In this document: one piece after another, positions 8,105-61,321 of the stretch | Numbering within the stretch: the stretch's first letter is position 1 | How the letters are laid out: every line of letters starts with the position of its first letter | DNA from: Gammaproteobacteria bacterium | Lineage (GTDB): Bacteria; Pseudomonadota; Gammaproteobacteria; JBCCGL01 | DNA: 64,000 nucleotides | Assembly (NCBI GenBank): GCA_965277715.1 | Contig: OZ255836.1 | Span: 800,001-864,000 of the forward strand | Reading direction: 5' to 3' | Notes under the pieces: generated by a model | The model's input: only the letters and a program-made list of their open reading frames with translations | What the model was told of the DNA's origin: nothing | Database searches by the model: none | Translations under genes and position numbers: made by a program

Positions 8105-11100
8105 ATGATGTCTAAAAAATCCTATTTCCTTCTCGTCTGCCTTTTTCTGACAAGCTTCAGTATCAGTGCGTTTGCAACCATACCCACCGTTCACAATACC
8201 AATGAAACCTATTATACCAATAACACGGGTCAAAATACGGTCGATGGATTTACCATTAGCCTTACCTCACCTGGCAATATCGCAAGGTATTCCGGGGAGA
8301 GCAGTGGATTCACCAGGGCTTTGGCAATAGAAAGTAATCCAGCAGTAACGACCCACACCTGGACATTTACGGCAGATAACTCTGACCTTGCGACGTTTAA
8401 CCTGGATCAGATTCGAGCTTTCGATTTTAGCGCCTCGGGTGCCGCGATGACTGTTGTGATTAATGCCAGTAATGGCATGTCACAGACCTTTACTACCAGT
8501 ACCTCTACTCAAAATAACCAAGCCATGCTAAATACCACGGCGGGTTTGTTTGATAGCATCAGCAGCTTCTCAGTTTCGCTGTCACTAAGTGGACGTTTGA
8601 ATAGTAATGCTTTATTGGCTGGGTTTACCATTTCCAATATTGTAGAGCCTATATTCGTTAATACGCCGCCAATCATAATCAATGCGCCCGCATCGGTAAC
8701 TGTGGTCGAAGATGTAGCGACTGATATCGGCTTATCCACCATTGTTTTTTTCGATAATGAAGCCAATCCCCTGACCACCACCTTCACTGCCGCCTCAGGC
8801 ACCTTAGCCACCGCATTGGGTAATGGCACCTTCGCAGGTGTGACTGTCAGCGGTTCGGGAACGGCTGCCCTGGTACTTGCCGGTAGCTCAGGCAACCTCA
8901 ATACCTTTTTAGACATCACGACCAATGTGCGCTATACAACGGCGCTAAACAATACAACCGCCACCAGCATTACTATCACTGGCAATGATGGCGATGGCGG
9001 TGATCTGACCACCAACCCCAGCATCACAGTTAATATCACCGCAGTGAATGATGCGCCGACGATAGCGGGTGTGCCTGCATCGGTGACCGTGGCGGAAGAT
9101 GTAGCGACGGCTATCGATTTATCTGCCAGCACCTTTGCCGATGCCGAGGACGATAGCCTGACTGTGACCTTGACCGCTGCCTCGGGCACCTTAGCCACCG
9201 TATCGGGTAATGGCGCCTCAGGCGGCGTAACTGTCAGCGGTTCGGGAACGGCCGCCCTGGTACTTGCCGGTAACCCGGCCAACCTCAATACCTTTTTAGA
9301 CACCGCGACCAATGTGCGCTATACAACGGCGCTAAACAATACAACCGCCACCAGCATTACTATCACTGGCAATGATGGCGATGGCGGTGATCTGACTACC
9401 AACCCCAGCATCACAGTTAATATCACCGCAGTGAATGATGCGCCGACGATAGCGGGTGTGCCTGCATCGGTGACCGTGGCGGAAGATGTAGCGACTGATG
9501 TCGATTTATCTGCCAGCACCTTTGCCGATGTCGAGGACGATAGCCTGACTGTGACCTTGACCGCTGCCTCGGGCACCTTAGCCACCGCATCGGGTAATGG
9601 CGTCTCAGGCGGCGTGACTGTCAGCGGTTCGGGAACGGCCGCCCTGGTACTTGCTGGTAACCCAGCCAACCTCAATACCTTTTTAGACATCACGACCAAT
9701 GTGCGCTATACAACGGCGCTAAACAATACAACCGCCACCAGCATTACTATCACTGGCAATGATGGCGATGGCGGTGATCTGACCACCAACCCCAGCATCA
9801 CAGTTAATATCACCGCAGTGAATGATGCGCCGACGATAGCGGGTGTGCCTGCATCGGTGACCGTGGCGGAAGATGTAGCGACGGCTATCGATTTATCTGC
9901 TAGCACCTTTGCCGATGTCGAGGACGATAGCCTGACTGTGACCTTGACCGCTGCCTCGGGCACCTTAGCCACCGTATCGGGTAATGGCGCCTCAGGCGGC
10001 GTAACTGTCAGCGGTTCGGGAACGGCCGCCCTGGTACTTGCCGGTAACCCGGCCAACCTCAATACCTTTTTAGACACCGCGACCAATGTGCGCTATACAA
10101 CGGCGCTAAACAATACAACCGCCACCAGCATTACTATCACTGGCAATGATGGCGATGGCGGTGATCTGACCACCAACCCCAGCATCACAGTTAATATCAC
10201 CGCAGTGAATGATGCGCCGACGATAGCGGGTGTGCCTGCATCGGTGACCGTGGCGGAAGATGTAGCGACTGATGTCGATTTATCTGCCAGCACCTTTGCC
10301 GATGTCGAGGACGATAGCCTGACTGTGACCTTGACCGCTGCCTCGGGCACCTTAGCCACCGCATCGGGTAATGGCAGCTCAGGCGGCGTAACTGTCAGCG
10401 GTTCGGGAACGGCTGCCCTGGTACTTGCCGGTAACCCGGCCAACCTCAATACCTTTTTAGACACCGCGACCAATGTGCGCTATACAACGGCGCTAAACAA
10501 TACAACCGCCACCAGCATTACTGTCACTGGCAATGATGGCAATGGCGGTGATCTGACCACCAGCCCCAGCATCACAGTTAATATCACCGCAGTGAATGAT
10601 GCGCCGACTATTGCCGGTACGCCTGCAACGGTAACTGTGGTTGAAAATGTAGCGACGGCTATCAATTTATCTTCCAGCACCTTTGCCGATGCCGAGGACG
10701 ACACCCTGACTGTGACCTTGACCGCTGCCTCGGGCACCTTAGCCATCGCATCGGGTAATGGCAGCTCAGGCGGTGTGACTGTCAGCGGTTCGGGAACGGC
10801 TGCCTTGCAGCTTGTCGGTAACCCGGCCAACCTCAATACCTTTTTAGACACCGCGACCAATGTGCGCTATACAACGGCGCTAAACAATACAACCGCCACC
10901 AGCATTACAGTCACGGGCAATGATGGCAATGGTGGCACTCTGACCACCAATCCCAGCATCGTCGTTAATATCGCCGTAGCGGAGAGCGATGTGCCGGTCT
11001 TACCCACAGATACTACGCTCACAGTGACAGCGACAGCCAATAGTTTGGCGATCAATTGGAACGCAGTGACCGATGTCAATTCAGTGATTTATGCGGTGAC

Positions 11101-13600
11101 CCTGACTGATACCATAACCAATAGTACCCAGACATTGTCAGTATCAGCGACCAGTGCCACGTTTAATGATTTAGTGCCAGGCCACCCCCATACCATTAGC
11201 GTTGTCGCGACAGATGCGCTGGGCAACCGCAGTAACTACCCAATCATGACGTTCAGCACATTGTCAGTAGTCGATGCAGATAATGATGGCCTTGCGGATA
11301 GTTTACAAAGCGCAGACAGCAGTGCTACCGACAGCGATGCCGATGGTATTAGCGATGATGTGGAGGCCTTTATTGGCAATGGTGCTGACGTGACTCAAAC
11401 GACCGATACCAATAATAATGGTATCCCTGATGTAGTCGAAGTGGGCATTGGTTTGAACCCTGCTGTCTCCGACCACGGTACGGCATCGGTCGGTGATAGC
11501 CGCCCTGTGATCAGTAACCTGAGCACACCGGCTAATGCCATATCGACGGCGATTTTCACATCCGTATCAGCGGCTACGGCCAGCAACAGTAATGCATCGA
11601 CCTCAGCGACACTGACGGTGCCTGCCTCGGCCTATTTTCGCACGGGCCGTTGCGCTGGTGCGATTTTGCCCGCCAATTTTGCATCGGCCTGTCAAGCGGT
11701 GCAGCGTGATAATAACAACAACCTGTTACTGTTAGCGGGTGCCCACTCATTGTGGTGGATAGCCGTAGACAGTAATGGCAACTGGCCATTAGGTGGTGCG
11801 GTTGCTCAGGCCATCAATGTGGTGCCAAAAGTGTCCTTTAGCTCGGGAAATATTATGACGAATGGTACTGCGACTGTGGTTCTGACGCTCAACGGTGCCC
11901 CGGTTGATCTTACGCGCACCCTGGAAGTACCCTATAGAATAACAGCGAATAGTACCGGCAGCTCGACCAATGCCGTAAACAGTACTGGTACTTTCAGCTT
12001 CGCGCCAGGCCAATTGAACAGTCGTATCAACCTGCCCGTTGGTACCAGTGCTGGCAGCATTGTTTTGCAAATTAACAGTAGTGCAGCGGTATTTGTACAA
12101 AACCCGGCCAATATAACCGCAGCTACCGAACGGGTTACCCTGGGGGCTAACAGCACCCAGACGATTAATGTTATCAGCGGCAATATTGCGCCGCAAACAT
12201 CGCTGACCGTGGTGGATAGCAACAACAGAGCCGTTTCATCTGTTCTGGCGGGCAGTACCATTAGCATCACCGCCATTGCCATCGATGCCAATGGCGATAC
12301 CCTGACTTATGACTGGAGCGCTTCCACCGGCATTACGGTACCGACTAACACCAGCACGCCATCCTTTACGGCTACGCTTCAGGCAGGTGTTGCCACGGTT
12401 ATCCTGTCTGTTTCAGATGGTGTCGCCACAGTGCGCACGCAGTTGCAGATTAGGGTGCTGGCGACTGATCCACTGGTTGGTGTGGCTGCCAACTCGGACC
12501 GGGATAACGATGGTTTAGTGGATAGCATGGAGGGTTTCGCTGACGACGACGGTGACCGGGTGCCCAACTTCATTGAACGTCTGCATGACACCAGCCAATT
12601 GCTGCCTATTGATACGACTGAATCCCGTTTTGTGACCTCTGAACCAGGTGTCGGTTTACGTCTGGGTAATATTGCCTTTACCTCGGCTGTTTTTGGTTCG
12701 AGCACGACGACAGGTTTTAATGCGAGCGTAGTGCCACAGGCACAAAATGGTGCCGGGTCTGAAATTATTCCTGCTGATACAGTGCCGCATGTCGGGAACA
12801 TTGTAGATTTCGAGGTGGTTAATCTGCCGGTAGCAGGCCAACAGATTAATGTGGTTATTCCACTCAGTGTGTCGATACCGGTGAACCCGATTTATCGCAA
12901 ATATTTGCCCGTGGCACTGGCGGGTTCTGGCCGTTCGAGTTGGGTAAATTTTGATACCACTACAGTCAATAGCAATGGTGCCAGAGATGCATTGGCATCG
13001 ACGATGAGCATAGGTGCGGGTATCTGCCCGGATTATGACGATACCAGTTGGCAGTCGGGCCTGGTGGTGGGCAATAACTGCTTACGCCTGACGATTACTG
13101 ATGGCGGCCCCAATGATGCCGACAATGCTATTAATAATGAAATAGCTGACCCTGCGGTACTTTCGGGGCAAATGGCGACGCTGGCAAACAGCTCGCTGAC
13201 ACTGGGTGCATCCTCTTTGGATGCCGATGGTCGGGCGGTGACTTCAATCACTGTTCGGGTGGCTGATATGGGTGGTAACCCTATGTCTGGTGTAACGGTA
13301 ACATTGAGTCAATCTGGCACGGCGGTGACACTGTCTTCTTTGACCGATAATAATGATGGCAGCTATACAGCGCAGCTTACCGCTGGCAATCAGGCAGGTA
13401 ATACCAGCATCTCTGCAAGGGTGGATGATGGCACCAATAGCGCCTTTAATCTCCCAACAGCCCAATTGGCGTTGTTATCAACACAAGCGCCGGTAGCCTC
13501 CACTAATGGTGGTGGTGGTGGTGGCATGGCTGTTTTTGAACTGGCAGGGTTATTAATGATGTTATTACTGTCGTTTTACTGTCGGCGATCAGTCAGGTAA
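8105..13600 (+). CDS. Large surface adhesin: signal peptide, 6 cadherin/Ig-like repeats, Fn3, DxDxDG Ca-binding repeats, choice-of-anchor-U-like and invasin Ig domains, GlyGly-CTERM
   Basis: Signal peptide ending AFA; VNDAP repeats; CLRLTITDGGPNDAD; TDNNDGSYTAQL; C-terminal GGGGGG plus TM plus RR. Confidence 0.85.
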   Translation: MMSKKSYFLLVCLFLTSFSISAFATIPTVHNTNETYYTNNTGQNTVDGFTISLTSPGNIARYSGESSGFTRALAIESNPAVTTHTWTFTADNSDLATFNLDQIRAFDFSASGAAMTVVINASNGMSQTFTTSTSTQNNQAMLNTTAGLFDSISSFSVSLSLSGRLNSNALLAGFTISNIVEPIFVNTPPIIINAPASVTVVEDVATDIGLSTIVFFDNEANPLTTTFTAASGTLATALGNGTFAGVTVSGSGTAALVLAGSSGNLNTFLDITTNVRYTTALNNTTATSITITGNDGDGGDLTTNPSITVNITAVNDAPTIAGVPASVTVAEDVATAIDLSASTFADAEDDSLTVTLTAASGTLATVSGNGASGGVTVSGSGTAALVLAGNPANLNTFLDTATNVRYTTALNNTTATSITITGNDGDGGDLTTNPSITVNITAVNDAPTIAGVPASVTVAEDVATDVDLSASTFADVEDDSLTVTLTAASGTLATASGNGVSGGVTVSGSGTAALVLAGNPANLNTFLDITTNVRYTTALNNTTATSITITGNDGDGGDLTTNPSITVNITAVNDAPTIAGVPASVTVAEDVATAIDLSASTFADVEDDSLTVTLTAASGTLATVSGNGASGGVTVSGSGTAALVLAGNPANLNTFLDTATNVRYTTALNNTTATSITITGNDGDGGDLTTNPSITVNITAVNDAPTIAGVPASVTVAEDVATDVDLSASTFADVEDDSLTVTLTAASGTLATASGNGSSGGVTVSGSGTAALVLAGNPANLNTFLDTATNVRYTTALNNTTATSITVTGNDGNGGDLTTSPSITVNITAVNDAPTIAGTPATVTVVENVATAINLSSSTFADAEDDTLTVTLTAASGTLAIASGNGSSGGVTVSGSGTAALQLVGNPANLNTFLDTATNVRYTTALNNTTATSITVTGNDGNGGTLTTNPSIVVNIAVAESDVPVLPTDTTLTVTATANSLAINWNAVTDVNSVIYAVTLTDTITNSTQTLSVSATSATFNDLVPGHPHTISVVATDALGNRSNYPIMTFSTLSVVDADNDGLADSLQSADSSATDSDADGISDDVEAFIGNGADVTQTTDTNNNGIPDVVEVGIGLNPAVSDHGTASVGDSRPVISNLSTPANAISTAIFTSVSAATASNSNASTSATLTVPASAYFRTGRCAGAILPANFASACQAVQRDNNNNLLLLAGAHSLWWIAVDSNGNWPLGGAVAQAINVVPKVSFSSGNIMTNGTATVVLTLNGAPVDLTRTLEVPYRITANSTGSSTNAVNSTGTFSFAPGQLNSRINLPVGTSAGSIVLQINSSAAVFVQNPANITAATERVTLGANSTQTINVISGNIAPQTSLTVVDSNNRAVSSVLAGSTISITAIAIDANGDTLTYDWSASTGITVPTNTSTPSFTATLQAGVATVILSVSDGVATVRTQLQIRVLATDPLVGVAANSDRDNDGLVDSMEGFADDDGDRVPNFIERLHDTSQLLPIDTTESRFVTSEPGVGLRLGNIAFTSAVFGSSTTTGFNASVVPQAQNGAGSEIIPADTVPHVGNIVDFEVVNLPVAGQQINVVIPLSVSIPVNPIYRKYLPVALAGSGRSSWVNFDTTTVNSNGARDALASTMSIGAGICPDYDDTSWQSGLVVGNNCLRLTITDGGPNDADNAINNEIADPAVLSGQMATLANSSLTLGASSLDADGRAVTSITVRVADMGGNPMSGVTVTLSQSGTAVTLSSLTDNNDGSYTAQLTAGNQAGNTSISARVDDGTNSAFNLPTAQLALLSTQAPVASTNGGGGGGMAVFELAGLLMMLLLSFYCRRSVR
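8660..10981 (+). repeat. Six tandem 387-bp (129-aa) repeats within the adhesin
   Basis: Units start at 8660, 9047, 9434, 9821, 10208, 10595; units 2-5 are near-identical. Confidence 0.95.
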
Positions 13601-31513: not shown

Positions 31514-31870
31514 ATGGCTACAGTTTCCTCACATATCCTCGATTCCATTATCGGTGCATCGGCAGCGGGCATTCGCGTCCAGCTTGTGCGCATCATCAGC
31601 GCCACTGAAAGGCAGCTATTATTTGATACCAACGCCGATCAGGAGGGGCGCATTGCCGAAACGGTTGTGATTGACCCAGCACTGGCCGATTCGGAATACG
31701 AACTCATCTTTCACAGTGCCGGTTATTTCGCTGGCCGGGCTATCCCCGCAGGTGAGCAGCAGATTATCAAAACCGTTGTGATCCGCTTTTCAATGCCAGA
31801 TGCCGGGCAGCGCTACCACATCCCACTAATGCTATCACCGCACGCGTATTCGGTGTGGTGGTCATCGTAA
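31514..31870 (+). CDS. Transthyretin-like / 5-hydroxyisourate hydrolase-like protein with atypical C-terminus
   Basis: SSHILD, EGRI, YHIPLMLSP; ends YSVWWSS. Confidence 0.75.
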   Translation: MATVSSHILDSIIGASAAGIRVQLVRIISATERQLLFDTNADQEGRIAETVVIDPALADSEYELIFHSAGYFAGRAIPAGEQQIIKTVVIRFSMPDAGQRYHIPLMLSPHAYSVWWSS

Positions 31871-31899
31871 CAGCGGATCGAGCAAGCGTGTTACGCACC

Positions 31900-33057
31900 A
31901 TGCCTTCACCCCGATTAAATGTATCGCGCCGTATTCGTGCGACACCCTACACACCGCGTGTCGAAGCGCTGGGCGTCTCCGGTTACTCGGTGGTTAACCA
32001 CACCATCTTACCCAAAGGCTTTCGCCAATCGGTGGCGGAGGATTACTGGCATTTAAAAAACCATGTGCAGATTTGGGATGTCGGTTGTCAACGGCAGGTT
32101 GAATTGCGCGGGCCGGATGCGGCCCGGTTAACCCAGCTAATGACACCGCGTGATTTGCGCAAGGCAGCGCCGGGGCACTGCCTGTACGCACCGATGGTCG
32201 ACGAGCGGGGCCACTTATTAAATGACCCGATCATCCTGAAACTGGCCGATGACCACTTCTGGTTATCGATTGCCGATGCCGATGTACTGCTATGGGCAAA
32301 AGGCCTGGCACTGGGTATGCAGCTCGACGTGGCCATCGAGGAGCCGGATGTCTGGCCACTGGCGGTACAGGGGCCAAAATCCGACGATCTCATGGCGCGT
32401 GTATTCGGTGAAGCAGTGCGTGAAATACGCTTCTTTCGTTTCGCAACGCTGGCGTTTTCCGGTCACCCATTGATTGTCGCCCGCTCGGGTTACAGCAAAC
32501 AGGGCGGCTTTGAAATCTACCTGGATAAACCCGCGCTGGGGTTGGACCTCTGGGATGCGCTCTGGCAGGCCGGGGCTGATTTGCACGTATTGCCCGGTAG
32601 CCCCAATTTAATCGAACGCGTGGAGAGCGGGCTGCTTTCCTACGGCAATGAAATGACCCGCGATGACAACCCGCTGGAGTGTGGGCTGGAAGACTATTGC
32701 TCACTCGATGGCGGTGTCGACTACATCGGGCGCAACGCCTTGCAGCGCATCGCTGCGCGGGGCGCGCAACGGTCGATTCGCGGCGTAGTATTTGATGGTG
32801 AACCGTGCCCGGCGTGCCAGCACCCTTGGCCGTTAACCGTTAATGGCGATAAGGCGGGGTATATCACCACGGCCATCTGGTCGCCACGTTTTAACCATAA
32901 TGTGGCGCTGGCGATGCTGGAAAAAGCCTATTGGGATGCGGGTACGCAGGTGATGGTTGAAAGCGGTGATGGTTTGTTAAGGCAGGGGATTGTTACCGCG
33001 CTGCCAATGGCGGATACCGATGTAGATTTATTTAACACTGCTATTCCCCGCCAGTAA
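31900..33057 (+). CDS. dmdA: DMSP demethylase-like aminomethyltransferase (GcvT family)
   Basis: SRRIRATPY, DYWHLKNHVQIWDV, LAVQGPKSDDLMARVFGEAVR, RSGYSKQGGFEIY, PNLIERVESGLLSYGN match DmdA as recalled; ATG 31900 preferred. Confidence 0.72.
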   Translation: MPSPRLNVSRRIRATPYTPRVEALGVSGYSVVNHTILPKGFRQSVAEDYWHLKNHVQIWDVGCQRQVELRGPDAARLTQLMTPRDLRKAAPGHCLYAPMVDERGHLLNDPIILKLADDHFWLSIADADVLLWAKGLALGMQLDVAIEEPDVWPLAVQGPKSDDLMARVFGEAVREIRFFRFATLAFSGHPLIVARSGYSKQGGFEIYLDKPALGLDLWDALWQAGADLHVLPGSPNLIERVESGLLSYGNEMTRDDNPLECGLEDYCSLDGGVDYIGRNALQRIAARGAQRSIRGVVFDGEPCPACQHPWPLTVNGDKAGYITTAIWSPRFNHNVALAMLEKAYWDAGTQVMVESGDGLLRQGIVTALPMADTDVDLFNTAIPRQ

Positions 33058-36000
33058 TGTCTCGATGCTATCCCAGGTTTCCAGTGGGTAGCGATCCATT
33101 TCCCCATGCTCATTTATCGCGTTAAACCCGAGAAATTGCCATGCGTCCTCGCTTAGAGCCAGTAATTTTCCCGCATGTCCTTCACGCGTAAAGTATTGCC
33201 CATCCGGTAAATACTCAATGGTGTAAATACATTCACCGGACTCGGCGTTCCATATTTTGATGGTTTGGTCATCGGAAGCGGAGGCGATGCGTTTGCTGTT
33301 GTGGTCGAAGGCGACGCTGTTAATTGTGTTGTTATGCCCTTTTAAGGTGTGAATACATTGTGCGGATACGGCGTTCCATATTTTGATGGTTTGGTCATCG
33401 GAAGCGGAGGCGATGCGTTTGCTGTTGTGGTCGAAGGCGACGCTGTTAATTGTGTTGTTATGCCCTTTTAAGGTGAGAATACATTGTCCGGATACGGCGT
33501 TCCATATTTTGATGGTTTGGTCATCGGAAGCGGAGGCGATGCGTTTGCTGTTGTGGTCGAAGGCGACGCTTTGAACCCAATTATCATGCCCTTTTAAGGT
33601 GTGAATACATTGTGCGGATACGGCGTTCCATATTTTGATGGTTTGGTCATTGGAAGCGGAGGCGATGCGTTTGCTGTTGTGGTCGAAGGCGACGCTGAGA
33701 GCTAGGCCTTCATGCCCTTTTAAGGTGAGAATACATTGTCCGGATACGGCGTTCCATATTTTGATGGTTTGGTCAAAGGAAGCGGAGACGATGCGTTTGC
33801 TGTTGTGGTCGAAGGCGACGCTGTTAATTGTGTTGTTATGCCCTTTTAAGGTGAGAATACATTGTGCGGATACGGCGTTCCATATTTTGATGGTTTGGTC
33901 ATTGGAAGCGGAGGCGATGCGTTTGCTGTTGTGGTCGAAGGCGACACTTTGAACCCAATCATCATGCCCTTTTAAGGTGTGAATACATTGTCCGGATACG
34001 GCGTTCCATATTTTGATGGTTTTGTCATATGAAGCGGAGGCGATGCGTTTGCTGTTGTGGTCGAAGGCGACGCTGTTAATTGTGTTGTTATGCCCTTTCA
34101 AGGTGAGAATACATTGTCCGGATACGGCGTTCCATATTTTGATGGTTTTGTCATCGGAAGCGGAGGCGATGCGTTTGTTGTTGTGGTCGAAGGCGACGCT
34201 GAGAACAGTATCTGAATGCCCTTTTAAGGTGTGAATACATTGTCCGGACTCGGCGTTCCATATTTTGATGGTTTTGTCATATGAAGCGGAGGCGATGCGT
34301 TTGCTGTTGTGGTCGAAGGCGACGCTTTGAACCCAATGATCATGCCCTTTTAAGGTGAGAATACATTGTGCGGATACGGCGTTCCATATCTTGATGGTTT
34401 TGTCATATGAAGCGGAGGCGATGCGTTTGTTGTTGTGGTCGAAGGCGACGCTGAGAACAGTATCTGAATGCCCTTTTAAGGTGAGAATACATTGTCCGGA
34501 CTCGGCGTTCCATATTTTGATGGTTTTGTCATATGAAGCGGAGGCAATGCGTTTGCTGTTGTGGTCGAAGGCGACGCTGTTAATTGTATTGTTATGCCCT
34601 TTTAAGGTGTGAATACATTGTCCGGATACGGCGTTCCATATTTTGATGGTTTTGTCAAAGGAAGCGGAGGCGATGCGTTTGCTGTTGTGGTTGAAGGCGA
34701 CGCTGAGAACTAGGCCTTCATGCCCTTTTAAGGTGAGAATACATTGTGCGGATACGGCGTTCCATATTTTGATGGTTTGGTCAAAGGAAGCGGAGGCGAT
34801 GCGTTTGCTGTTGTGGTCGAAGGCAACGCTTTTAACCCAATCATCATGCCCTTTTAAGGTATGAATACATTGTCCGGATTGTGCATCCCAGAGTTTGAGG
34901 GTGTTGTCGTGTGAAGCGGAGGCGATCAGCAGGCCATCATGTGAAAAAGCGGCGGCGCTAACTGCATCGCGGTGTCCGACAAACGGGGTGGCAGGGCGAG
35001 CGGGCGGGCGGGCGATTTTTTTCGCCAGCGGATGCTGGCAACCGGCATTAAACGGTGGGTGCCCGCTTATCGCCGACGGCCATACCACGTCATTGAGCTG
35101 GCAGTGCAGCCACTGGCTACGGTGTTGCTGTGGCGTAGCCAGCCGCGCAGCAGAAAAATCGTTGTGGTAGAACACCGCCCCGCTCAAATCGGCCTGGCTG
35201 AAGTCGGCGGATTGCAGCGCGCTGTCGCGCCATAATACCCGTTGCAGATTGGCCTGTTGAAAGTGGACGTGGTTGAGCTGTACCTGGGTAAAGCGGCTGT
35301 CGCTAAGGTCGGCCCTGTCGAACGCCGCACCGCTGAGGTCCACATCGTTCAATACCAGGCCAGCCAATTGTGCACCGTGGAGCTGAAAACCTTGCAGGCC
35401 GGGCTGGGGTTGCTGGCGCGGCGCGGCGTATAAGCTGTAGTGAAATAGCGCTTCGCTGGCCTGACGAAGGTAGTGCTGCTTCCAGCCTGCCAATATGGCC
35501 AATAAATTGTCGGCGCCACTGTGCAGTTGCAGCAGTTCGCCGAGAAATTGCAGGGTTTCATTGGAGGGGGGGGCGAGACACCAACCCTCTTGCCGATTCT
35601 CGTCTATTGCCCGCAACAGATAACAGGCCAGAAAGTACTCCTGGATTGAGGTGTGGGCAAAGCGAAACTGATCGCTATTGGCACGCACCAACAGGGTGGA
35701 GTTGCGCAAATCGTTTTCCAGTAATTCCTGTATGCCGGTTTTGGCCCCAGCCCGGATTTTGGGGTGGGCGTATAGCCACTCCTCCAGCCAGGCTTCCAGG
35801 GTCTCGACCGGGCAGGCGCGCAGCCCTTCGCGCCAGAAGTGCGCCGCCAGGTCTTCCAGCAGGTATTGCTTGTGCCGGGGCAGTAACTGGTGCTTGCCGT
35901 CATCGCGGCGGAACAGGCGCTCGACCATAATGCGGTACAGCCGGGCGGCGTTGATGGTCTCGCCGCGTTGGTAGGCTAACTCCAGGCTGGGAATATCGTT

Positions 36001-37896
36001 GGCGATAAGGTTTAGGGTGAGCGGGCGCGTCGCCAGGCCACTGAGGTCGTGAATCTTCGCCAGCAATGCCTCGATTTCGAGCGCCTTCTCTGCGCCAAAA
36101 CGCTTGCCCAGGTACTCGCGAATCTGCTCGGTTTCCAGCGGCAACAACTGCCAGCCCTGGTAGTCTTCACCGCTGCGCGCCTCGCGCAAATAGCCCTGCA
36201 AAAACGCGTTTTGCTCGCTTTGGTTGCGAAAGAAATCACTGCGACAACTTATCACCAGACGGCAGCGGGTGTTATCGAGTAGTGCATTCACCTCGGCGGG
36301 CAGCGGTGGCTGACCCGGTCTGTCCTTGGCTTGTTGCCGCCATTGGTTGCGCTGGCTGAGCGCCTCGCGGTAGTCCGGCGGGAACACCCGCCAAAGCTCG
36401 CGTAAAAAGTGCGCTTGCGCATCGCGGTCGAGGTGGGTGAGCTTTTCGTCGAGACCGTCGAAGATCACCAACGCCTCGCCGTTGCGGGCCATATCGACCA
36501 AGTGCTGCCCGTCGATATCCCGCTCTTCTGCCAGGCGGAGAATCTCCGCCAGTATCTGCTCCAGCGTCGGCAGGCGGTGGTCGGCGAATACCGGCGTCAG
36601 GCGCAGGTCGATATACACCGGCAGCGGGTAGATATGCGGTTGCTGCTGGTGTTTCTCTTCGAGCTGCCAGGCGAGCATTTTACACGTGAAGGTTTTACCA
36701 CTGCCAAATTCGCCGAGAATACCGAATAGCGGTGCGACAGGTTTGGTGTCTTTTACCCAGGATAGAACAGTATCCAGAATCCGGCTTGGCGCTTCACTGG
36801 CGTTCGACACCGTTTCACCGACATTGCGCATATCGGTTTCCTGGGCGGATATATCGACATAGGCATCGTATGGGTAGCTTGCGTCCTGGTAGGGTAGGTC
36901 GATAAGTTTTGCTGCACGGTAGGCACTTGGGGTGCGCTCACGTGGGGCTTGGTTATTCCGCCGTGTCATCCGCTGGTCAATCGATTCGACCAAGCCACGA
37001 ATAAAGCGCTTTTGCAGCACCATGGTAATGCACTCTTTGAAGAACGTTGGCTTAACGATGTCTGACAGGGTGTAAAGCTGGCGTTGCTCTAAGCCACAGA
37101 TAGTGAAAAGCGCCTCTATCTCGACGCTTTCCAACCCCACGGGTAATACGCCTTTTTCCAATAGCGGTGGCACTTCGTGGTCTTTTATATAACCGCTGTT
37201 TAAAAAACCGGGTGATACCATCAGCAAACCTGCATCGGCTTGGGCAATGGCTTGTTGAATCGTCTGATGCCAGTTCTCGCCGATCAGAATGTCGCTATCC
37301 CGCCAGAATGTGTAAGTCTTATTCGGGCATTTTTGCTTGGCGATACGGGCAAACTCCGCGATAAAGTTTTCCACATCCTGGGCATTTTTTCGGCTGTAAC
37401 AGACAAAAAGTGTGTGCTCGATTTTGGTTGTAGATTCGGGTTTGTTTACGGGTTCAGGAATGGCGGAGAGGTCGACGTAAGTTTGCTGCGGATATTGTTC
37501 GTTACTGGGGTTGAGCCGCCGGGTTAGACCGCTTTGCTGGCTGATTGTGACCGGCGTGCCCTGCCACCACAAACGGCGTTGTGCCAGAGCGGTTTGTTTG
37601 CGGCTATCGCCTTGCAACTCCAGGCGGTTCATGCCAGACAACTCAGCCGCCTGCTTAATGCGCCCGCGAAACTTGCGCAGCTCCGCCTGCGCCTTATCGT
37701 CTTCCAGATGATCAAACAGCGCCGCCAGCACCTGGGCCATATTCAACTTACCATCGTCCAATAACAACGTCTGGATCGACTCCAGGCGCTGCATATCGCT
37801 GGAACCCAGCTCGTTTTTGTCCAGTAATTGGCTGATTGCACCTGTAGCCTGGCGCTTGTTCAATACGGGAATCGGTTTTTTTGCCTTGCGTTTCAT
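33028..37896 (-). CDS. NLR-like STAND protein: TIR - NACHT NTPase - pentapeptide repeats - 14 WD40 repeats
   Basis: TIR (FVCYSRKN..FWRDSDI..VSPGFLNSGYIKDHEV), Walker A GEFGSGKT, Walker B IFDGLDE, ISCRS, pentapeptide tract, GH...WN repeats. Confidence 0.9.
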   Translation of the reverse strand: MKRKAKKPIPVLNKRQATGAISQLLDKNELGSSDMQRLESIQTLLLDDGKLNMAQVLAALFDHLEDDKAQAELRKFRGRIKQAAELSGMNRLELQGDSRKQTALAQRRLWWQGTPVTISQQSGLTRRLNPSNEQYPQQTYVDLSAIPEPVNKPESTTKIEHTLFVCYSRKNAQDVENFIAEFARIAKQKCPNKTYTFWRDSDILIGENWHQTIQQAIAQADAGLLMVSPGFLNSGYIKDHEVPPLLEKGVLPVGLESVEIEALFTICGLEQRQLYTLSDIVKPTFFKECITMVLQKRFIRGLVESIDQRMTRRNNQAPRERTPSAYRAAKLIDLPYQDASYPYDAYVDISAQETDMRNVGETVSNASEAPSRILDTVLSWVKDTKPVAPLFGILGEFGSGKTFTCKMLAWQLEEKHQQQPHIYPLPVYIDLRLTPVFADHRLPTLEQILAEILRLAEERDIDGQHLVDMARNGEALVIFDGLDEKLTHLDRDAQAHFLRELWRVFPPDYREALSQRNQWRQQAKDRPGQPPLPAEVNALLDNTRCRLVISCRSDFFRNQSEQNAFLQGYLREARSGEDYQGWQLLPLETEQIREYLGKRFGAEKALEIEALLAKIHDLSGLATRPLTLNLIANDIPSLELAYQRGETINAARLYRIMVERLFRRDDGKHQLLPRHKQYLLEDLAAHFWREGLRACPVETLEAWLEEWLYAHPKIRAGAKTGIQELLENDLRNSTLLVRANSDQFRFAHTSIQEYFLACYLLRAIDENRQEGWCLAPPSNETLQFLGELLQLHSGADNLLAILAGWKQHYLRQASEALFHYSLYAAPRQQPQPGLQGFQLHGAQLAGLVLNDVDLSGAAFDRADLSDSRFTQVQLNHVHFQQANLQRVLWRDSALQSADFSQADLSGAVFYHNDFSAARLATPQQHRSQWLHCQLNDVVWPSAISGHPPFNAGCQHPLAKKIARPPARPATPFVGHRDAVSAAAFSHDGLLIASASHDNTLKLWDAQSGQCIHTLKGHDDWVKSVAFDHNSKRIASASFDQTIKIWNAVSAQCILTLKGHEGLVLSVAFNHNSKRIASASFDKTIKIWNAVSGQCIHTLKGHNNTINSVAFDHNSKRIASASYDKTIKIWNAESGQCILTLKGHSDTVLSVAFDHNNKRIASASYDKTIKIWNAVSAQCILTLKGHDHWVQSVAFDHNSKRIASASYDKTIKIWNAESGQCIHTLKGHSDTVLSVAFDHNNKRIASASDDKTIKIWNAVSGQCILTLKGHNNTINSVAFDHNSKRIASASYDKTIKIWNAVSGQCIHTLKGHDDWVQSVAFDHNSKRIASASNDQTIKIWNAVSAQCILTLKGHNNTINSVAFDHNSKRIVSASFDQTIKIWNAVSGQCILTLKGHEGLALSVAFDHNSKRIASASNDQTIKIWNAVSAQCIHTLKGHDNWVQSVAFDHNSKRIASASDDQTIKIWNAVSGQCILTLKGHNNTINSVAFDHNSKRIASASDDQTIKIWNAVSAQCIHTLKGHNNTINSVAFDHNSKRIASASDDQTIKIWNAESGECIYTIEYLPDGQYFTREGHAGKLLALSEDAWQFLGFNAINEHGEMDRYPLETWDSIETLLAGNSSVK
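33214..34977 (-). repeat. Fourteen tandem 126-bp WD40-coding repeats, 13 near-identical
   Basis: Exact 126-bp period; consensus GHxxxxxSVAFDHNSKRIASASxDxTIKIWNAxSxQCIxTLK. Confidence 0.96.
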
Positions 37897-38095: not shown

Positions 38096-38968
38096 ATGAA
38101 AGTTTCACTTGATCATTTATCTGAACAGAAACAGCGCGAGCTGAAATGGGCCACGGATATTGTCCGCGAAGAAGCCAACCCCGAAATGCTCATTTTGTTT
38201 GGCAGCTACGCTCGCGGTGACTGGGTGGAGGACTTAAACCCGGAAACGCTGCATTACCGTTATCAAAGCGATTTTGATTTGTTGGTGGTTACAGAAACCC
38301 GCAAAGAAGCCGGTAAAATTGAGCAAAACAACGCGCTTAACCAGCGTTTAATGAAAGCGATACACAGAACCCCAATCAGCCTGATTGCTGAGGACATCCA
38401 ATTTGTTAACCGGCGTTTAAGAAAGAGCCAGTATTTTTACATTGACATCAAACGTGAAGGTATAACCCTTTATGATTCAGGGCGGTTTGAATTAGCCGAA
38501 CCAAAGGAACTTAATGTAGAAGAAAGAAGGCGACTAGCGGAAGAAGATTTTGACTATTGGTTTGGCAAAGCATCAAGGCTTTTAAATTTCTATGATTTTG
38601 GTATTAGTGAAAAAGCTTATAATGAGGCAGCATTTCAGCTTCATCAAGTAACTGAAAGCTTATATGGAACAATATTGTTGGTTTTTACTCGCTATAAACC
38701 CAGCACCCATGATTTAGCAAAATTGAGCCAACGAGTCACCAGCATTAAACCACAGTTTCTTAGCGTATTTCCGCAGGGGACTGAAGAAGAAAAAAACCAC
38801 TTTGAGTTACTGCGTAAAGCTTATGTCGATGCACGTTACAAGCCGAGCTACAAAATCACTCGGCAAGAATTGGAATGGTTGGCAGGACGGGTGCAACAAC
38901 TAAAATCTTTAACGGAAATGCTTTGCAAGGAAAAAATTGAAAGTTTTAGGGAGTGCTCAAACAAATAA
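38096..38968 (+). CDS. Fused nucleotidyltransferase (MNT)-HEPN protein
   Basis: LFGSYARGD...SDFDLLVV NTase motif; HEPN FQLHQ..E, HDL, YVDARY. Confidence 0.85.
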   Translation: MKVSLDHLSEQKQRELKWATDIVREEANPEMLILFGSYARGDWVEDLNPETLHYRYQSDFDLLVVTETRKEAGKIEQNNALNQRLMKAIHRTPISLIAEDIQFVNRRLRKSQYFYIDIKREGITLYDSGRFELAEPKELNVEERRRLAEEDFDYWFGKASRLLNFYDFGISEKAYNEAAFQLHQVTESLYGTILLVFTRYKPSTHDLAKLSQRVTSIKPQFLSVFPQGTEEEKNHFELLRKAYVDARYKPSYKITRQELEWLAGRVQQLKSLTEMLCKEKIESFRECSNK

Positions 38969-39128
38969 ACATAGCAAATACCCAAACAATCAGTTTCTGG
39001 AAGATGTCACTGTGGCGCATTAGAATATGACGTTATTGCCACTGCAATAGTTGCAGGCTTAGCGCTAAATATCGAACGGTCAGTCGATGTTTTTAGATTA
39101 AAATTAAAACAGTTTTTTGGAATTAAAA

Positions 39129-41396
39129 ATGTCTGATAACTTATTGAATAACATTACAAAAAATTTGCAAGAAAGCACCGATAATGACACTTTTTGCACG
39201 CGCTTCTCTTTTCCTGCAACCGACTTTCCAGTCGAGATAAAACACCTTGGGGAAATAAACTTCCCCGTTTCGACCCGAATAGCCAAAGAGATAATTGATC
39301 AAGCTCAGCTAGCACCCTTCGGCTGGCGGGATCAAACCATAGTAGACACAAGAGTGCGCAATGCCTGGGAAATAAAAAAATCAAAAATCAAGCTACCTGG
39401 TACAAGCATGGAGCAGATTCCTGAAATGCTAGAACGCATAAAGAAAAACCTAAATATGGCCGCTGACGCCACCTTGGTGCCTGAGCTTCACAACTTGGTT
39501 ATCTACGAAAAAGGCCAGTTTTTTTCCAGCCACCAAGACACAGAGAAATGCAAAGATATGATCGCCACCATGGTGATTTTGCTACCATCAAACTTCAAGG
39601 GAGGCACTTTGACAATCGATCGACAAGGTGATGTGAAAAAATACACCGCACCCAGAACCACTAACCACCTTCAAGTCATCGCCTTTTACACGGATTGTGT
39701 TCACGAAGTAAAAAAAATCACCTCGGGCTACCGCATAGCCCTCACTTTCAACTTGCTGCTAAAGGGCGCTGGCACCCTCCAGCCTTTGCAAAACCCAGCG
39801 CTAACAGAGTCGATAAAAGCATACTTCTCGGAAGACGAGAGGCAAGCGCTAAACTGCGCGCAATCAAATCACCCAACCTGGTTAGTTTATCTACTGGATC
39901 ACCAATACTCCCAATATGGCCTAAGTTGGGGACACCTGAAAAGTGCGGATCGCACACACGCCTCACAACTGCTTGCCGCTGCGGAAGCACTCGACCTCGA
40001 AGCGCATTTATCTTTGGCGGATGTTCACGAGGTCTGGCAAACAGAATCGGACTATTCCAATAGTGGGTACTACGGTTACAGGGGGGGCGACGACGATGGA
40101 GAAGATGAAGATATATCGGGCGATGATGTGGAGTGCATCGAGTTTATCGAGGGTGATTGCGAACTCCGACGTTGGGTGAATTCAAACGGTAAGAAACGGG
40201 CTTGGAAGGGGCATTACGTGCCAGATGAAATGGTAGGCTGGACGAAGGCGATGGATAACTTCGAGCCTTTCGATTCCGCGTATGAAGGCTTTATGGGAAA
40301 TTATGGCGACACGATGGAAAAGTGGTATCACCGCGCCGCTATTACACTTTGGCGAAAAACCGACGCATTCCCCAGCCTATTTGCTATCGACGCGAATGGC
40401 ACTCAGAAAAAAGTGCAAAAAATGCTCGATACCAACTTTGAACAAGGTGTGGCGGCTCTAAAGACGCTTTTACCTCAATGGGAACGCAAGGTAGGCTCCG
40501 ATGGTGTACAAATATCTGAGACGCTAAAACTCTGTCTTTTGGTAAAAGATAAAGCGTTAGCGACCCAATTGCTCGAAGGCTATGGAATGGAGGCCGTATG
40601 CAGGAAGCACGGCGTCGGACTAAGAAACCTGGCCCGAAGTTATGGACAGAAATGGTTGGTGGAGCTCCTCGATATTTGGAGCAAATCAGATCGTGACTAC
40701 TTTGATCCGATTGCTGGTCTCGCCTTTCTGATAAACATTTTTCGCGATGATTCAGAGGTGGCGGCATGGCTTTGTGCTTATCAGTTTAAATGGTTCGAGG
40801 TCTCAGACAGTGTGGCTCAAGAACATGATAGCCAGGTGTCGATAGTGAAAACCCGCAATAAACGCGTCTCCCATGCCGTCGATTTTCTGAAATCCTTAGC
40901 CGCCCTTGGGGAAAACAGTATTATGGCGAAATCGACCCGGCACTTCCTCGGTTATCCCAGACTATATGATGCTGTCACCTTGGCAGACATGGTGCTCGGC
41001 TTACAAGACGAAAATTTATCGCCTAACATCCAGAAATTAACCGCAGAAGCGAGGAAGCGGCTCAAGGCGTCGACAGCTAAAACCAGGAAGGAAGGTGACT
41101 ACTCGATTTTGGAAATCGATACCTGTAAATGTAAAGATTGTGTTGTGCTTCACGGCTTCCTCAAAAGCAAAAAAGAAACGCAATATGTTTGGCCTCTGGC
41201 ACAAGGCAGGCGATACCATATACACCGAGTCATAGATGATATGGGCATCGGTGTTTCCCATCAAACCCAGCGGGAGGGCTGCCCGTATAAGCTCGTTCTG
41301 AAGAAGCTCGATAAGTATTTCAAAAATGAAGCGCGTGTAAAGACCATGCAGTCTGAAAAGCTTGCAAAAATTGAAGCAATTTATAGATTAAGATGA
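39129..41396 (+). CDS. 2OG-Fe(II) oxygenase with a long C-terminal extension
   Basis: HQD...HEV...RIALTFNL facial triad and 2OG Arg; acidic loop; C-terminal CKCKDC. Confidence 0.8.
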   Translation: MSDNLLNNITKNLQESTDNDTFCTRFSFPATDFPVEIKHLGEINFPVSTRIAKEIIDQAQLAPFGWRDQTIVDTRVRNAWEIKKSKIKLPGTSMEQIPEMLERIKKNLNMAADATLVPELHNLVIYEKGQFFSSHQDTEKCKDMIATMVILLPSNFKGGTLTIDRQGDVKKYTAPRTTNHLQVIAFYTDCVHEVKKITSGYRIALTFNLLLKGAGTLQPLQNPALTESIKAYFSEDERQALNCAQSNHPTWLVYLLDHQYSQYGLSWGHLKSADRTHASQLLAAAEALDLEAHLSLADVHEVWQTESDYSNSGYYGYRGGDDDGEDEDISGDDVECIEFIEGDCELRRWVNSNGKKRAWKGHYVPDEMVGWTKAMDNFEPFDSAYEGFMGNYGDTMEKWYHRAAITLWRKTDAFPSLFAIDANGTQKKVQKMLDTNFEQGVAALKTLLPQWERKVGSDGVQISETLKLCLLVKDKALATQLLEGYGMEAVCRKHGVGLRNLARSYGQKWLVELLDIWSKSDRDYFDPIAGLAFLINIFRDDSEVAAWLCAYQFKWFEVSDSVAQEHDSQVSIVKTRNKRVSHAVDFLKSLAALGENSIMAKSTRHFLGYPRLYDAVTLADMVLGLQDENLSPNIQKLTAEARKRLKASTAKTRKEGDYSILEIDTCKCKDCVVLHGFLKSKKETQYVWPLAQGRRYHIHRVIDDMGIGVSHQTQREGCPYKLVLKKLDKYFKNEARVKTMQSEKLAKIEAIYRLR

Positions 41397-59374: not shown

Positions 59375-61321
59375 GTGATTACTTACCGGACACCAATACT
59401 TATGCATTGTTCTTGGCTAACAACAAAACATTCTCGATACCTTCCAAATAATGTTTTGGATGAGTCTTTACATTATCGGGGTGGAAGCACGACATTGATT
59501 ACGCTCTATAATGAGCCTGGAGAGCAACTGGCACTGAGTTTACTCGCACTTACTAAATCGATTCAATGGTCGCAAGCAAAAAACGCAGCAACCCAGAATA
59601 ACGCTAAACAAATCTTGCCACACACAATATGTATTATCGCAGACGGTTACCACAACCTGAGTGACTCCGCAAAAGCAGTTTTTAAACACTTAGGGAAAGA
59701 CCTGGAACGGGATGAGCTATCCACTAGCGATATGCTAATTCACAATACTTCCATCAATACGGCAGAACTTATTCAATCATTGGAAGGTATCAATTTCCAT
59801 CAAACCAGCTTGCATAAGAATACCGCAGTCAAACTATTACTGTGTATTAAACGCGAAAATTCTGGCAAGTTAGACACTCATTGGTGGTATTACAGATTAC
59901 TGTGCCCAACAATAGAGCCACAATTTTGTTTTCATCTAGATACCGCAACAGAGCCATGCCTCGAATCTATTTACCACATGGAACAGTGTATGCTTGACAA
60001 TAGCGAGGTGGGAGCGGTCGCTAGCAGCGTATGTATAAAACCACTCGAAAATGTTATTGAGATACTGAATATATGGCAATACCGAAGCTTGCTAAACTCC
60101 GTGTATCTTGAGTGGCCGACAGATGAGCTTCTGTCGTATTTAAATGTTATTCCCGGCCAGTATGGTGTAATGCGCTGGGAGGCAATTGCTGATGATAAAG
60201 AGCGGGATGATGTGCAACGAGAAGGTTTACAGCCTCTTGATATATACTTTAAAGGGCTTGGAAAATTGCCGCCATTTGAATCTTCCCTTTACTTGGCTGA
60301 GGATCGTGTACTTTGTAAAGAGGTGATACTTCGGCCAAAGCACTCATGGAAGCTCAAACACGTTGACCACGCCATTGCTTATAGTGACGCTTGCGAGAAC
60401 TTACCTGAGTTGTTGCAACAACGTCGACGCTGGAATGTTGGCACACTAGCCTCTCGTGCAAGCTACCTTTTACGTTTACCCCAATGCCTAACATCAGATG
60501 AGCACTCCCGCCTATCTAAACTTAAGATGCTTTTTTTTGGTGCTATACAAGTTATTCGTCTTCTAATGGATTGGTTTTCACTACTGGTACCGCTAGCCTA
60601 TTACGATATTGCCAGCAGTGCCCTTGCTACAACAAAATCGGGTTCGCTAACATATTATTACAGCTTTGGCATTTCTGTTGTCACGGCGCTCATGCTGATT
60701 TGGCAGTTTTATATATCGCTAAGGGGTAAAACAGACGAGGTTGCAGAATACTCGCTATGGCTATCTATTGCCATTCAAGCGATATTTGCTTTGAGTATGT
60801 ATCCTCATTTGCTTACTAGCGACAAGGGCGGCATCGCCTTATTATTAATGTCATTCTCGCTACTTTGCGTTCCATTTATCTCTGCATACAAAAAGTTCGT
60901 GCCAACGTCTGCGATTTTTCGTGACAGTATTTTTTATTTTGTCTGTTCTCCCATTATCTCTTACCAGCTATGGATATTTGCTATTTGTAATACTCACCAG
61001 ACTAGTTGGGGCACCAAAGGATTACAGGCGCCAAACCGCTATGGGAACAAACACCGCCAAGCCGAATTTACAAGATTTCGCTGGTATATTCTTAGCTTAT
61101 GGATCATCTCAAGCAGTGGTATGACGGTGGCCCTATATAAGTCACTCACTGCAAACGAATATAACGGCGTTATTTTAGCCCTGGGCGTACAAGCGGCGAT
61201 AATACTGCTCGCCACTGTCGCCACGATGATACGAGCGACACTCTCGACAATGAGACAAGGGGTAAAAACAGCTCACAAGTACTTCATCCGAGCCCTGCGG
61301 ACAATTGGAATTACGGGGTAG
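59375..61321 (+). CDS. Chitin synthase (GT2, fungal class I-III-like)
   Basis: ITLYNE, IIADG, KRENSGKLDTHWW, VIPGQY, YLAEDRVLC, QRRRW, several TM helices, SWGTKG. Confidence 0.85.
   Translation: MITYRTPILMHCSWLTTKHSRYLPNNVLDESLHYRGGSTTLITLYNEPGEQLALSLLALTKSIQWSQAKNAATQNNAKQILPHTICIIADGYHNLSDSAKAVFKHLGKDLERDELSTSDMLIHNTSINTAELIQSLEGINFHQTSLHKNTAVKLLLCIKRENSGKLDTHWWYYRLLCPTIEPQFCFHLDTATEPCLESIYHMEQCMLDNSEVGAVASSVCIKPLENVIEILNIWQYRSLLNSVYLEWPTDELLSYLNVIPGQYGVMRWEAIADDKERDDVQREGLQPLDIYFKGLGKLPPFESSLYLAEDRVLCKEVILRPKHSWKLKHVDHAIAYSDACENLPELLQQRRRWNVGTLASRASYLLRLPQCLTSDEHSRLSKLKMLFFGAIQVIRLLMDWFSLLVPLAYYDIASSALATTKSGSLTYYYSFGISVVTALMLIWQFYISLRGKTDEVAEYSLWLSIAIQAIFALSMYPHLLTSDKGGIALLLMSFSLLCVPFISAYKKFVPTSAIFRDSIFYFVCSPIISYQLWIFAICNTHQTSWGTKGLQAPNRYGNKHRQAEFTRFRWYILSLWIISSSGMTVALYKSLTANEYNGVILALGVQAAIILLATVATMIRATLSTMRQGVKTAHKYFIRALRTIGITG

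Follow-up and report, generated by a model that had tools for sequence, protein, structure and literature searches.

Architecture of the gene

The window examined here is a stretch of 64,000 nucleotides (nt) of DNA from a gammaproteobacterium (assembly GCA_965277715.1, contig OZ255836.1, positions 800,001 to 864,000), and the subject of this analysis is one of its genes, the product of which carries a highly repetitive array of WD40 units near its C-terminus. The gene is an intact open reading frame (ORF) of 1622 amino acids (aa) on the reverse strand at 33028..37896, with its stop codon at 33028-33030, and all parts of it described below lie on that strand. The layout of the protein is tripartite. 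The first part holds NNH6, the NACHT N-terminal helical domain 6 (aa 17-122, 37531..37848; Pfam PF22737, 63.4 bits against a cut-off of 27), and a TIR-like domain (aa 164-257, 37126..37407; Pfam TIR_2, 33.5 bits against a cut-off of 28), which is the likely effector. The second is a NACHT NTPase (aa 393-601, 36094..36720; Pfam PF05729, 28.9 bits against a cut-off of 26.7). The third consists of pentapeptide repeats and 14 WD40 units; the pentapeptide-repeat segment (aa 850-917, 35146..35349; Pfam Pentapeptide and Pentapeptide_4, in agreement with NCBIfam pentapeptide models at aa 834-934) is the spacer between NACHT and the propeller part. With NACHT, TIR_2 and NNH6 all above the Pfam cut-offs, the domain content supports a single-chain bacterial NLR-like STAND receptor as the predicted product, as had been proposed in a first-pass annotation of the window.

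Conserved residues were read from an alignment of 12 relatives. Walker A (G395-T402, with G395, G398, G400, K401 and T402) is invariant, and so are Walker B D480-E484 and the surrounding F479-K485. In the TIR part, all 12 family members keep glutamate E241, a candidate for the catalytic Glu. The sole PDB sequence match of the TIR part is 7uxr (E = 0.1), in an alignment that stops before E241, and PADLOC gave weak TIR/ThsB matches for the protein. In the protein atlas all leads were below 0.9 and belonged only to NACHT, pentapeptide, WD40 or TIR clusters. A promoter scan was uninformative (4 sites against 4.2 expected).

The WD40 units are followed by a C-terminal tail of 66 residues (aa 1557-1622, 33031..33228) which is conserved in the family but belongs to no Pfam family; neither the tail nor two linker regions that were scanned had a Pfam match up to E = 1. 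Tail residues A1585, W1586, L1589 and G1598 are invariant in the same 12-relative alignment, and in relatives the matching tail, which comes after blade 14 and is about 65 residues long, has a consensus around an A-W-x-x-L-G motif. The structural model described below gives the tail a few strands, at low confidence. Closure of the last propeller or autoinhibition are guesses at its role.

Repeat units and their variable sites

Tandem Repeats Finder reported a single array at 33226-34926 with a period of 126, 13.5 copies and 88% matches. Set in a 42-residue register, the array consists of 14 units, which correspond to residues 969-1556 and to 33229-34992 of the window, a shift of about 15 nt from the 33214-34977 of the first-pass annotation. 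Unit 1 (34867..34992) is divergent, with 56-62% nt identity to units 2-14. Units 2-14 (13 x 126 nt, 33229..34866) are 84-97% identical to one another, so that 13 of the 14 blades are indeed near-identical 126-bp units. The median pairwise aa identity among the 14 units is 0.81. A stretch of 41 nt from the backbone of the unit found 13 matches at no more than 3 mismatches, against 0 in 100 shuffles.

The differences among units 2-14 are concentrated in hypervariable codons 8-12, 28 and 30. Over the 21 nt of these seven codons (hot codons) the nt divergence is 41.5%, against 3.9% in the backbone. The residues that follow the GH pair form a cassette with four classes: D[D/H/N]WV[K/Q] in 4 units, EGL[V/A]L in 2, NNTIN in 5 and SDTVL in 2. 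At the second, 3' patch, position 28 is F in 3 units, Y in 4, D in 4 and N in 2, and position 30 is Q in 7 units and K in 6. The first-pass annotation had described exactly these classes and residues, and had claimed that the variation clusters in two spots and that the alleles reassort independently; these claims hold, the last on the evidence of the next section. The NNTIN cassette, for example, is paired with YDK in units 4 and 8, with FDQ in unit 10 and with DDQ in units 13 and 14. Further variable sites are position 2 (H/L, 6/7), position 38 (V/E, 10/3), position 40 (A/G, 5/8) and position 20 (S/N, 11/2), and singleton variants occur at positions 17, 24 and 41. Ranked by variability, the leading positions at this locus are 28, 8, 12, 9, 10, 11 and 30. 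The four positions predicted from the literature (10, 12, 28 and 30) are all within this top seven of the 42 (P = 3.1e-4).

Recombination and substitution within the array

Among 22 informative sites, 130 of the 231 site pairs are incompatible, and the Hudson-Kaplan minimum number of recombination events (Rm) within the 126-nt unit is 7. Local incompatibility is lower than in 2000 of 2000 permutations of the site order. Distances between units at one variable patch do not correlate with those at the other (r = -0.13), and the 3' patch correlates with the distance between units along the array (r = 0.40, p = 0.004). Recombination has thus taken place among the units. The longest exact tracts that units have in common are 107, 91, 77, 68, 68 and 65 nt; tracts of this length are long enough for RecA-type recombination.

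In the backbone the proportion of synonymous differences (pS) is 0.085 and that of nonsynonymous differences (pN) is 0.026, whereas pS of the hot codons reaches 0.46-0.54. The earlier remark that synonymous changes are few is therefore correct for the backbone and not for the hot codons. Because pS is high there as well, the Nei-Gojobori ratio of nonsynonymous to synonymous substitution (dN/dS) of the hot codons is only 0.81. Alignment of the units, which the first-pass annotation had put forward as the check on its proposal, thus bears out recombination but does not give a dN/dS above 1. The high pS was considered as a sign that the cassettes are older than the backbone, an argument that was dropped, as the clean synonymous comparisons are too few.

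Two other sources of diversity were considered and rejected. Silent donor cassettes of the kind used in antigenic variation are absent from the 64-kb window, in which there is no second copy of a unit or of the cassettes. For a diversity-generating retroelement, no reverse transcriptase was found in the 18 neighbouring ORFs scanned; a second copy of the unit or cassettes is again missing from the window, and the cassettes differ at all four bases.

Location of the variable residues on a propeller model

In a sequence search of the PDB, the array has its top match in 2ymu_A (E = 1.6e-227). Residues 969-1622 were modelled with AlphaFold2, using 16 homologous arrays. The model has a mean predicted local distance difference test score (pLDDT) of 80 and a predicted template modelling score (pTM) of 0.43; its pLDDT is lower in residues 220-300 (model numbering), close to the boundary predicted after unit 7. 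Compared by fold, the model also matches 2YMU best (E = 9e-61, 577 columns), and next come tandem-propeller proteins, among them Apaf-1, Aip1 and Gemin5. 2YMU is described as the WRAP domain of Nostoc punctiforme Npun_R6612, in which 14 blades form two 7-bladed propellers (bioRxiv 10.1101/723619). The match to 2YMU in both sequence and fold supports a model in which the 14 units fold as two 7-bladed propellers, as the first-pass annotation had supposed.

In the model, strands occupy unit positions 1-5 (d), 11-16 (a), 22-27 (b) and 31-36 (c). With this placement, positions 8-10 would lie in the d-a loop, positions 11-12 at the start of strand a, and positions 28-30 in the b-c turn. By the sequence rule reported by Wu et al. 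(2012), the hotspots R1-2, R1 and D-1 of the top face correspond to positions 10, 12 and 28. The positions also correspond to those of the fungal receptors: in the account of Paoletti et al. (2007), Podospora codons 7, 9, 25 and 27 are positively selected, flank the conserved codons 8 and 26, and lie in the d-a loop and the b-c turn at the top of the propeller, and with an offset of 3 they become positions 10, 12, 28 and 30 here. The mapping to the top face is based on secondary structure and homology. On this basis the main variable residues are predicted to lie on the binding face, in a loop, at the start of a strand and in a turn, and both the top-face location and the correspondence with the hypervariable Podospora positions claimed earlier agree with the model.

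Not all variation is so placed. Positions 2, 38 and 40 fall in strand d and the c-d loop of the model, which in the WD40 topology are not on the top face; part of the variation thus lies elsewhere. Read along the array, D-1 runs H, F, F, Y, Y, Y, D through units 1-7 and Y, N, F, N, D, D, D through units 8-14; at D+1, units 3-8 have K, and unit 2 and units 9-14 have Q. The faces of the two propellers are therefore predicted to differ in chemistry, that of units 1-7 being rich in aromatic residues and that of units 8-14 rich in Asn and Asp.

Relatives of the gene and the pattern across the family

The 960 N-terminal residues have full-length relatives at 44-46% identity and many more at about 30-35%. 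In a full HMMER search, 697 clusters had an E of 1e-30 or lower, and 2117 had 1e-10 or lower. An alignment-based scan with one genome per species yielded 80 loci in Chlorobiota, Planctomycetota, Myxococcota, Verrucomicrobiota, Spirochaetota, Acidobacteriota and other phyla. Identity at a lag of 126 nt is at least 0.80 over four units in 30 of the 80 loci, and aa identity at a lag of 42 is at least 0.7 in 45 of the 150 best representatives and in 31 of the 69 representatives with a length of 1400 aa or more. Highly repetitive arrays are thus present in about 30-45% of relatives, in many phyla, and in almost half of the near-full-length members. Many related loci (L025, L028, L034, L041, L043 and others) end at a contig end inside the WD40 array, so that repetitive members are probably under-counted and are often truncated in short-read assemblies. 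Single-protein search found no close N-terminal relative in genome contigs, and metagenome contigs contained none by protein search or by the exact 41-nt backbone pattern.

Each array of the family has its own consensus unit. The nearest backbone neighbour of a unit is in its own gene for 241 of 256 units, and backbone identity is 0.877 within genes against 0.567 between genes. Despite these different consensus units, the same sites vary. The most variable positions in 16 other loci are 28, 10, 12, 9 and 30, and those in 49 arrays of a 50%-clustered library are 28, 10, 9, 12 and 30. When 25 loci were pooled, pN was equal to or higher than pS only at codons 9, 10, 12, 28 and 30, with pN/pS of about 1.0-1.5, and in 22 of the 25 loci hot-codon pN exceeded backbone pS.

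The number of units is also shared. It is 14 in 13 of 24 loci, and in the long representatives 14 is both the mode (25 of 56) and the maximum. Members with repetitive arrays are scattered over the tree of N-terminal parts, on which 21 changes of state were counted against 22.9 +/- 2.2 with shuffled labels; 118 of 500 shuffles gave a number no higher than that observed.

Comparisons of close relatives show how far arrays can differ behind similar N-terminal parts. Two proteins of Cystobacter fuscus are 89% identical over 953 N-terminal residues and have 14 units each, but both the backbones and the hot residues of their arrays differ. In a sister clade, N-terminal parts that are 87-95% identical are joined to WD regions that are only 49-58% identical; the exception is one pair with 78% WD identity, which is not the closest pair N-terminally. 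This nearest clade (P0002, P0004-P0007, P0093 and P0094) is a mosaic of modules. In an allele pair at 97% identity, the differences are found mainly in residues 100-480.

Neighbouring genes, sample and assembly

On one flank of the gene are dnaX, recR and genes for an FMN dehydrogenase, a TPP enzyme and HIUase, together with a GCV_T-like gene; on the other are thrS, pheS and pheT. The NLR gene and the GCV_T-like ORF (31855-33057 in the program-made ORF list) converge, and their ends overlap by 30 nt (33028-33057). Divergent from the NLR gene, a 290-aa ORF at 38096-38968 (+) encodes a nucleotidyltransferase and HEPN in one chain, with a weak PADLOC match to the candidate family PDC-S09. It is followed at 39117-41396 (+) by a 759-aa ORF whose only recognised domain is a 2OG-Fe(II) oxygenase (aa 127-212); this is the most GC-poor stretch near the NLR gene (GC 0.43 against about 0.52-0.55 around it), and its PADLOC match, to '2OG, CRISPR-associated', is weak as well. 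Both ORFs belong to a GC-poor stretch beside the NLR gene. Farther away, a 648-aa ORF at 59375-61321 (+), in a GC-poor stretch (0.40), matches Pfam Chitin_synth_1 (E = 7.5e-20), and a chitin synthase domain is unusual for a gammaproteobacterium. A giant surface adhesin is the probable product of an 1831-aa ORF at 8105-13600 (+), in which bacterial cadherin-like, fibronectin type III and invasin D3 domains were recognised.

No partner gene is conserved across the loci of the family, as clusters of neighbours other than NLR genes never extend to more than 7 loci. The largest neighbour cluster (18 loci) was considered as a partner and turned out to consist of pieces of the NLR gene. With no conserved neighbour, the gene is a single-gene system.

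The threonyl-tRNA synthetase of the window (ThrRS) shares 70-73% identity with its counterparts in named Gammaproteobacteria, among them Microbulbifer, Porticoccaceae, Thiothrix and Nitrincola. The source is an uncultured, sponge-associated bacterium: three studies have sponge metagenome runs that contain the stretch, which is also present in runs of two coded organisms. In two runs no difference from the window was found, and two carry a strain that is 3-4% diverged in the flanks. Of the 3 in-array differences listed for contigs of this related strain, 2 affect hot codons (Q>K at codon 30 of unit 9 and H>D at codon 9 of unit 6); the pieces concerned are short and fit several units, which makes this weak evidence.

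Discussion

The results are probably best explained by an NLR-like STAND receptor whose repetitive WD40 sensor is homogenised by recombination, while selection maintains diversity on the top face. Homologous recombination or gene conversion among the units would homogenise the backbone and reassort the two patches, and selection would keep diverse about five top-face residues per blade, in the d-a loop, at the start of strand a and in the b-c turn. The further steps are drawn from homologous systems. By that analogy, a ligand, probably a protein of a phage or other invader, would bind the propeller faces; binding would free the NACHT module to oligomerise; oligomerisation would bring the TIR domains together; and these may then consume or convert NAD+ and stop the infected cell.

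Several findings weigh against this interpretation. At the locus itself the hot-codon dN/dS does not exceed 1, and among relatives hot-codon pN is higher than hot-codon pS in just 15 of 25. The number of units is fixed near 14, so that unequal crossing-over of the Podospora type is not evident. Sister-clade alleles that are identical at 1604 of 1611 and at 1569 of 1610 positions have almost unchanged WD regions in the part of the alignment displayed, and near-unchanged arrays in alleles at 97-99% identity speak against fast mutation of the arrays in general. A role in defence is hinted at in the neighbourhood only by the nucleotidyltransferase-HEPN and 2OG-oxygenase ORFs, the flanks being housekeeping genes, and no relative was found on viral contigs. 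The effector call is weak, TIR_2 being about 5 bits over its cut-off and the PDB match having E = 0.1, and among PADLOC system models none fits the whole protein. Public contigs of four runs break at about 33265-33304 and at 34788-34795; inside the array the public Logan contigs provide only pieces of 49-84 nt, and a second allele is unreadable.

Recent amplification from one blade, as in the WRAP model of the Lupas group, would make the uniform backbone a mark of youth and not of ongoing homogenisation, with the substitutions arising later. Near-identical WRAP arrays, and gene-specific nucleotides that are common to all blades, are interpreted in this way by Afanasieva et al. (2019) and by Pereira and Lupas (2022). 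The clustering of units by gene and the scatter of the repetitive state on the N-terminal tree (21 changes against 22.9 +/- 2.2) fit it, and synonymous comparisons between cassette classes do not clearly make the cassettes older than the backbone. However, the cassette classes differ at many of 15 nt, against 3.9% in the backbone, and unit 1 has escaped homogenisation. Identical cassettes occur with different 3' patches, and with Rm = 7 recombination among already diverged units is needed anyway; moreover, diverged relatives also have 14 units, so that every re-amplification would have to restore exactly 14. We regard an origin of this kind as unlikely. A similarly low probability is given to a static sensor, in which the blade differences form a fixed, asymmetric binding site with no current diversification or variation between strains. 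The positional gradient of the 3' patch (r = 0.40, p = 0.004), the chemically distinct halves of the array, the fixed number of units, the arrays retained in sister-clade alleles at 97-99% identity and a dN/dS below 1 at the locus are all as expected of such a sensor. It does not account for the hypervariability of five identical positions in dozens of independent arrays, for pooled pN reaching pS only at those five codons, or for the very different arrays borne by close N-terminal relatives; the hot-codon differences in related-strain contigs (2 of 3) argue weakly in the same direction.

That the mosaic order of the units was made by the assembler is very unlikely. Short-read assemblies of such arrays are reported to be unreliable in Podospora (PMC12222747), and the breaks of the public contigs and the many related loci that stop at a contig end within the array illustrate the difficulty. 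The gene, however, sits on a contig of 4,294,796 bp, which suggests long reads, and its ORF is intact, with exactly 14 units and the conserved tail, like those of relatives. Run X5, which may be the source sample, has pieces with an identity of at least 99% in 29 of 30 bins, and run X8, from another study, has them in 23 of 30; a comparable mosaic is found in complete isolate genomes such as that of Cystobacter fuscus. The chance is equally slight that the product is a eukaryote-like repeat protein of a sponge symbiont, with WD40 and TIR domains acting on the sponge. The sponge runs point to such a host, WD40 proteins are counted in the literature among the eukaryotic-like proteins of sponge symbionts, and the window also encodes the giant cadherin/fibronectin/invasin-type protein. 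Against this, members of the family occur in free-living Myxococcota, Chlorobiota, Planctomycetota, Verrucomicrobiota, Spirochaetota and others, the protein is built like an intracellular STAND switch, and no signal peptide is apparent by eye at the N-terminus.

A sensor homogenised by recombination and diversified at its top face is thus preferred. A stronger version, in which short-tract gene conversion keeps reassorting the two patches in natural populations of this symbiont and of the many phyla with the family, at a fixed copy number and across nearly invariant stretches of about 45 and 57 nt, is possible but doubtful. If it were true, each lineage would carry a different pair of propeller faces, and bacteria would have a counterpart, at the level of the germline, of combinatorial immune receptors, which would also be the likely ancestor of the fungal NWD regime. 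For this locus, the change of specificity by repeat shuffling that the first-pass annotation proposed is a hypothesis. The family results may be useful for work on bacterial NLRs, as the family is large and spread over many phyla, has a unit number of 14, and has five variable positions in common among its members and with the fungal receptors. Cultivable members such as Cystobacter and Hyalangium offer a route for testing reassortment against recognition.

Comparison with known systems

The suggestion in the first-pass annotation that the array belongs to an undescribed system is not upheld, as highly repetitive WD40 arrays with diverse hotspots in bacterial STAND/NLR proteins are already in print. 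Hu et al. (2017) reported 305 Highly-Repetitive WD40 proteins, half of them bacterial, in which diversity is found at the hotspot sites. Dyrka et al. (2020) described WD and TPR repeats of bacterial NLRs that are 80-90% identical internally and suggested rapid diversification as in fungi. WRAP arrays in STAND proteins were linked to bacterial innate immunity by Afanasieva et al. (2019) and by Pereira and Lupas (2022), who cite Dunin-Horkawicz et al. (2014) and interpret the arrays as recent amplifications. The present gene therefore adds a well-resolved example and not a new system. Its array has four classes of cassette and proven recombination within the gene, and its TIR effector is part of one chain with the sensor. 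Supplements apart, the literature search turned up no account of this protein, nor one of intragenic recombination in an array from bacteria.

By the criterion of Hu et al. (2017), an internal identity of at least 0.7, the array with its median of 0.81 is a Highly-Repetitive WD40. NACHT and TIR have 0 occurrences in the main text of that paper, and recombination within arrays is not analysed there. The bNACHT (Kibby et al.) and Avs-type STAND sensors share the layout of effector, NACHT and repeat sensor with the present protein. Kibby et al. name TIR, beta-propeller and pentapeptide repeats among the partners of bacterial NACHT domains, and a 2026 survey of STAND proteins notes WD40 propeller sensors; the clade tables of both surveys may already include the present architecture. 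The main text of the bNACHT preprint, however, does not contain 'WD40', and its legend of tested proteins lists no beta-propeller; outside the supplements, no report of a tested WD40 sensor was found.

The closest structural counterpart is the WRAP protein Npun_R6612, which likewise has 14 WD40 units of about 42 aa, C-terminal to a STAND ATPase. The few substitutions reported for it are nonsynonymous and mostly affect one position (W to R), equivalent to position 12 (R1) here. Its blades are almost identical (10 changes in 563 residues), whereas the present array is clearly a recombinant mosaic, with four classes of multi-residue cassettes and two more variable sites. In Nostoc, TIR is described on a second, co-transcribed STAND protein, and here it is in the same chain.

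The HET-D/E/R receptors of Podospora anserina, members of the NWD family, share with the present gene the combination of NACHT with 126-bp/42-aa WD40 units of high internal identity, the equivalent four hypervariable codons around two conserved ones, and the clustering of units by gene. Their effector is HET where the bacterial protein has TIR. The Podospora genes are reported to differ in repeat number (2-15), to exchange repeats among ten paralogues and to undergo repeat-induced point mutation (RIP), whereas 14 units are found in most relatives of the present gene. Positive selection has been formally shown in Podospora, in contrast to the dN/dS of 0.81 at the present locus. Thus, the bacterial and fungal receptors vary at the same positions of the propeller blade, the bacterial ones with a nearly constant number of blades.

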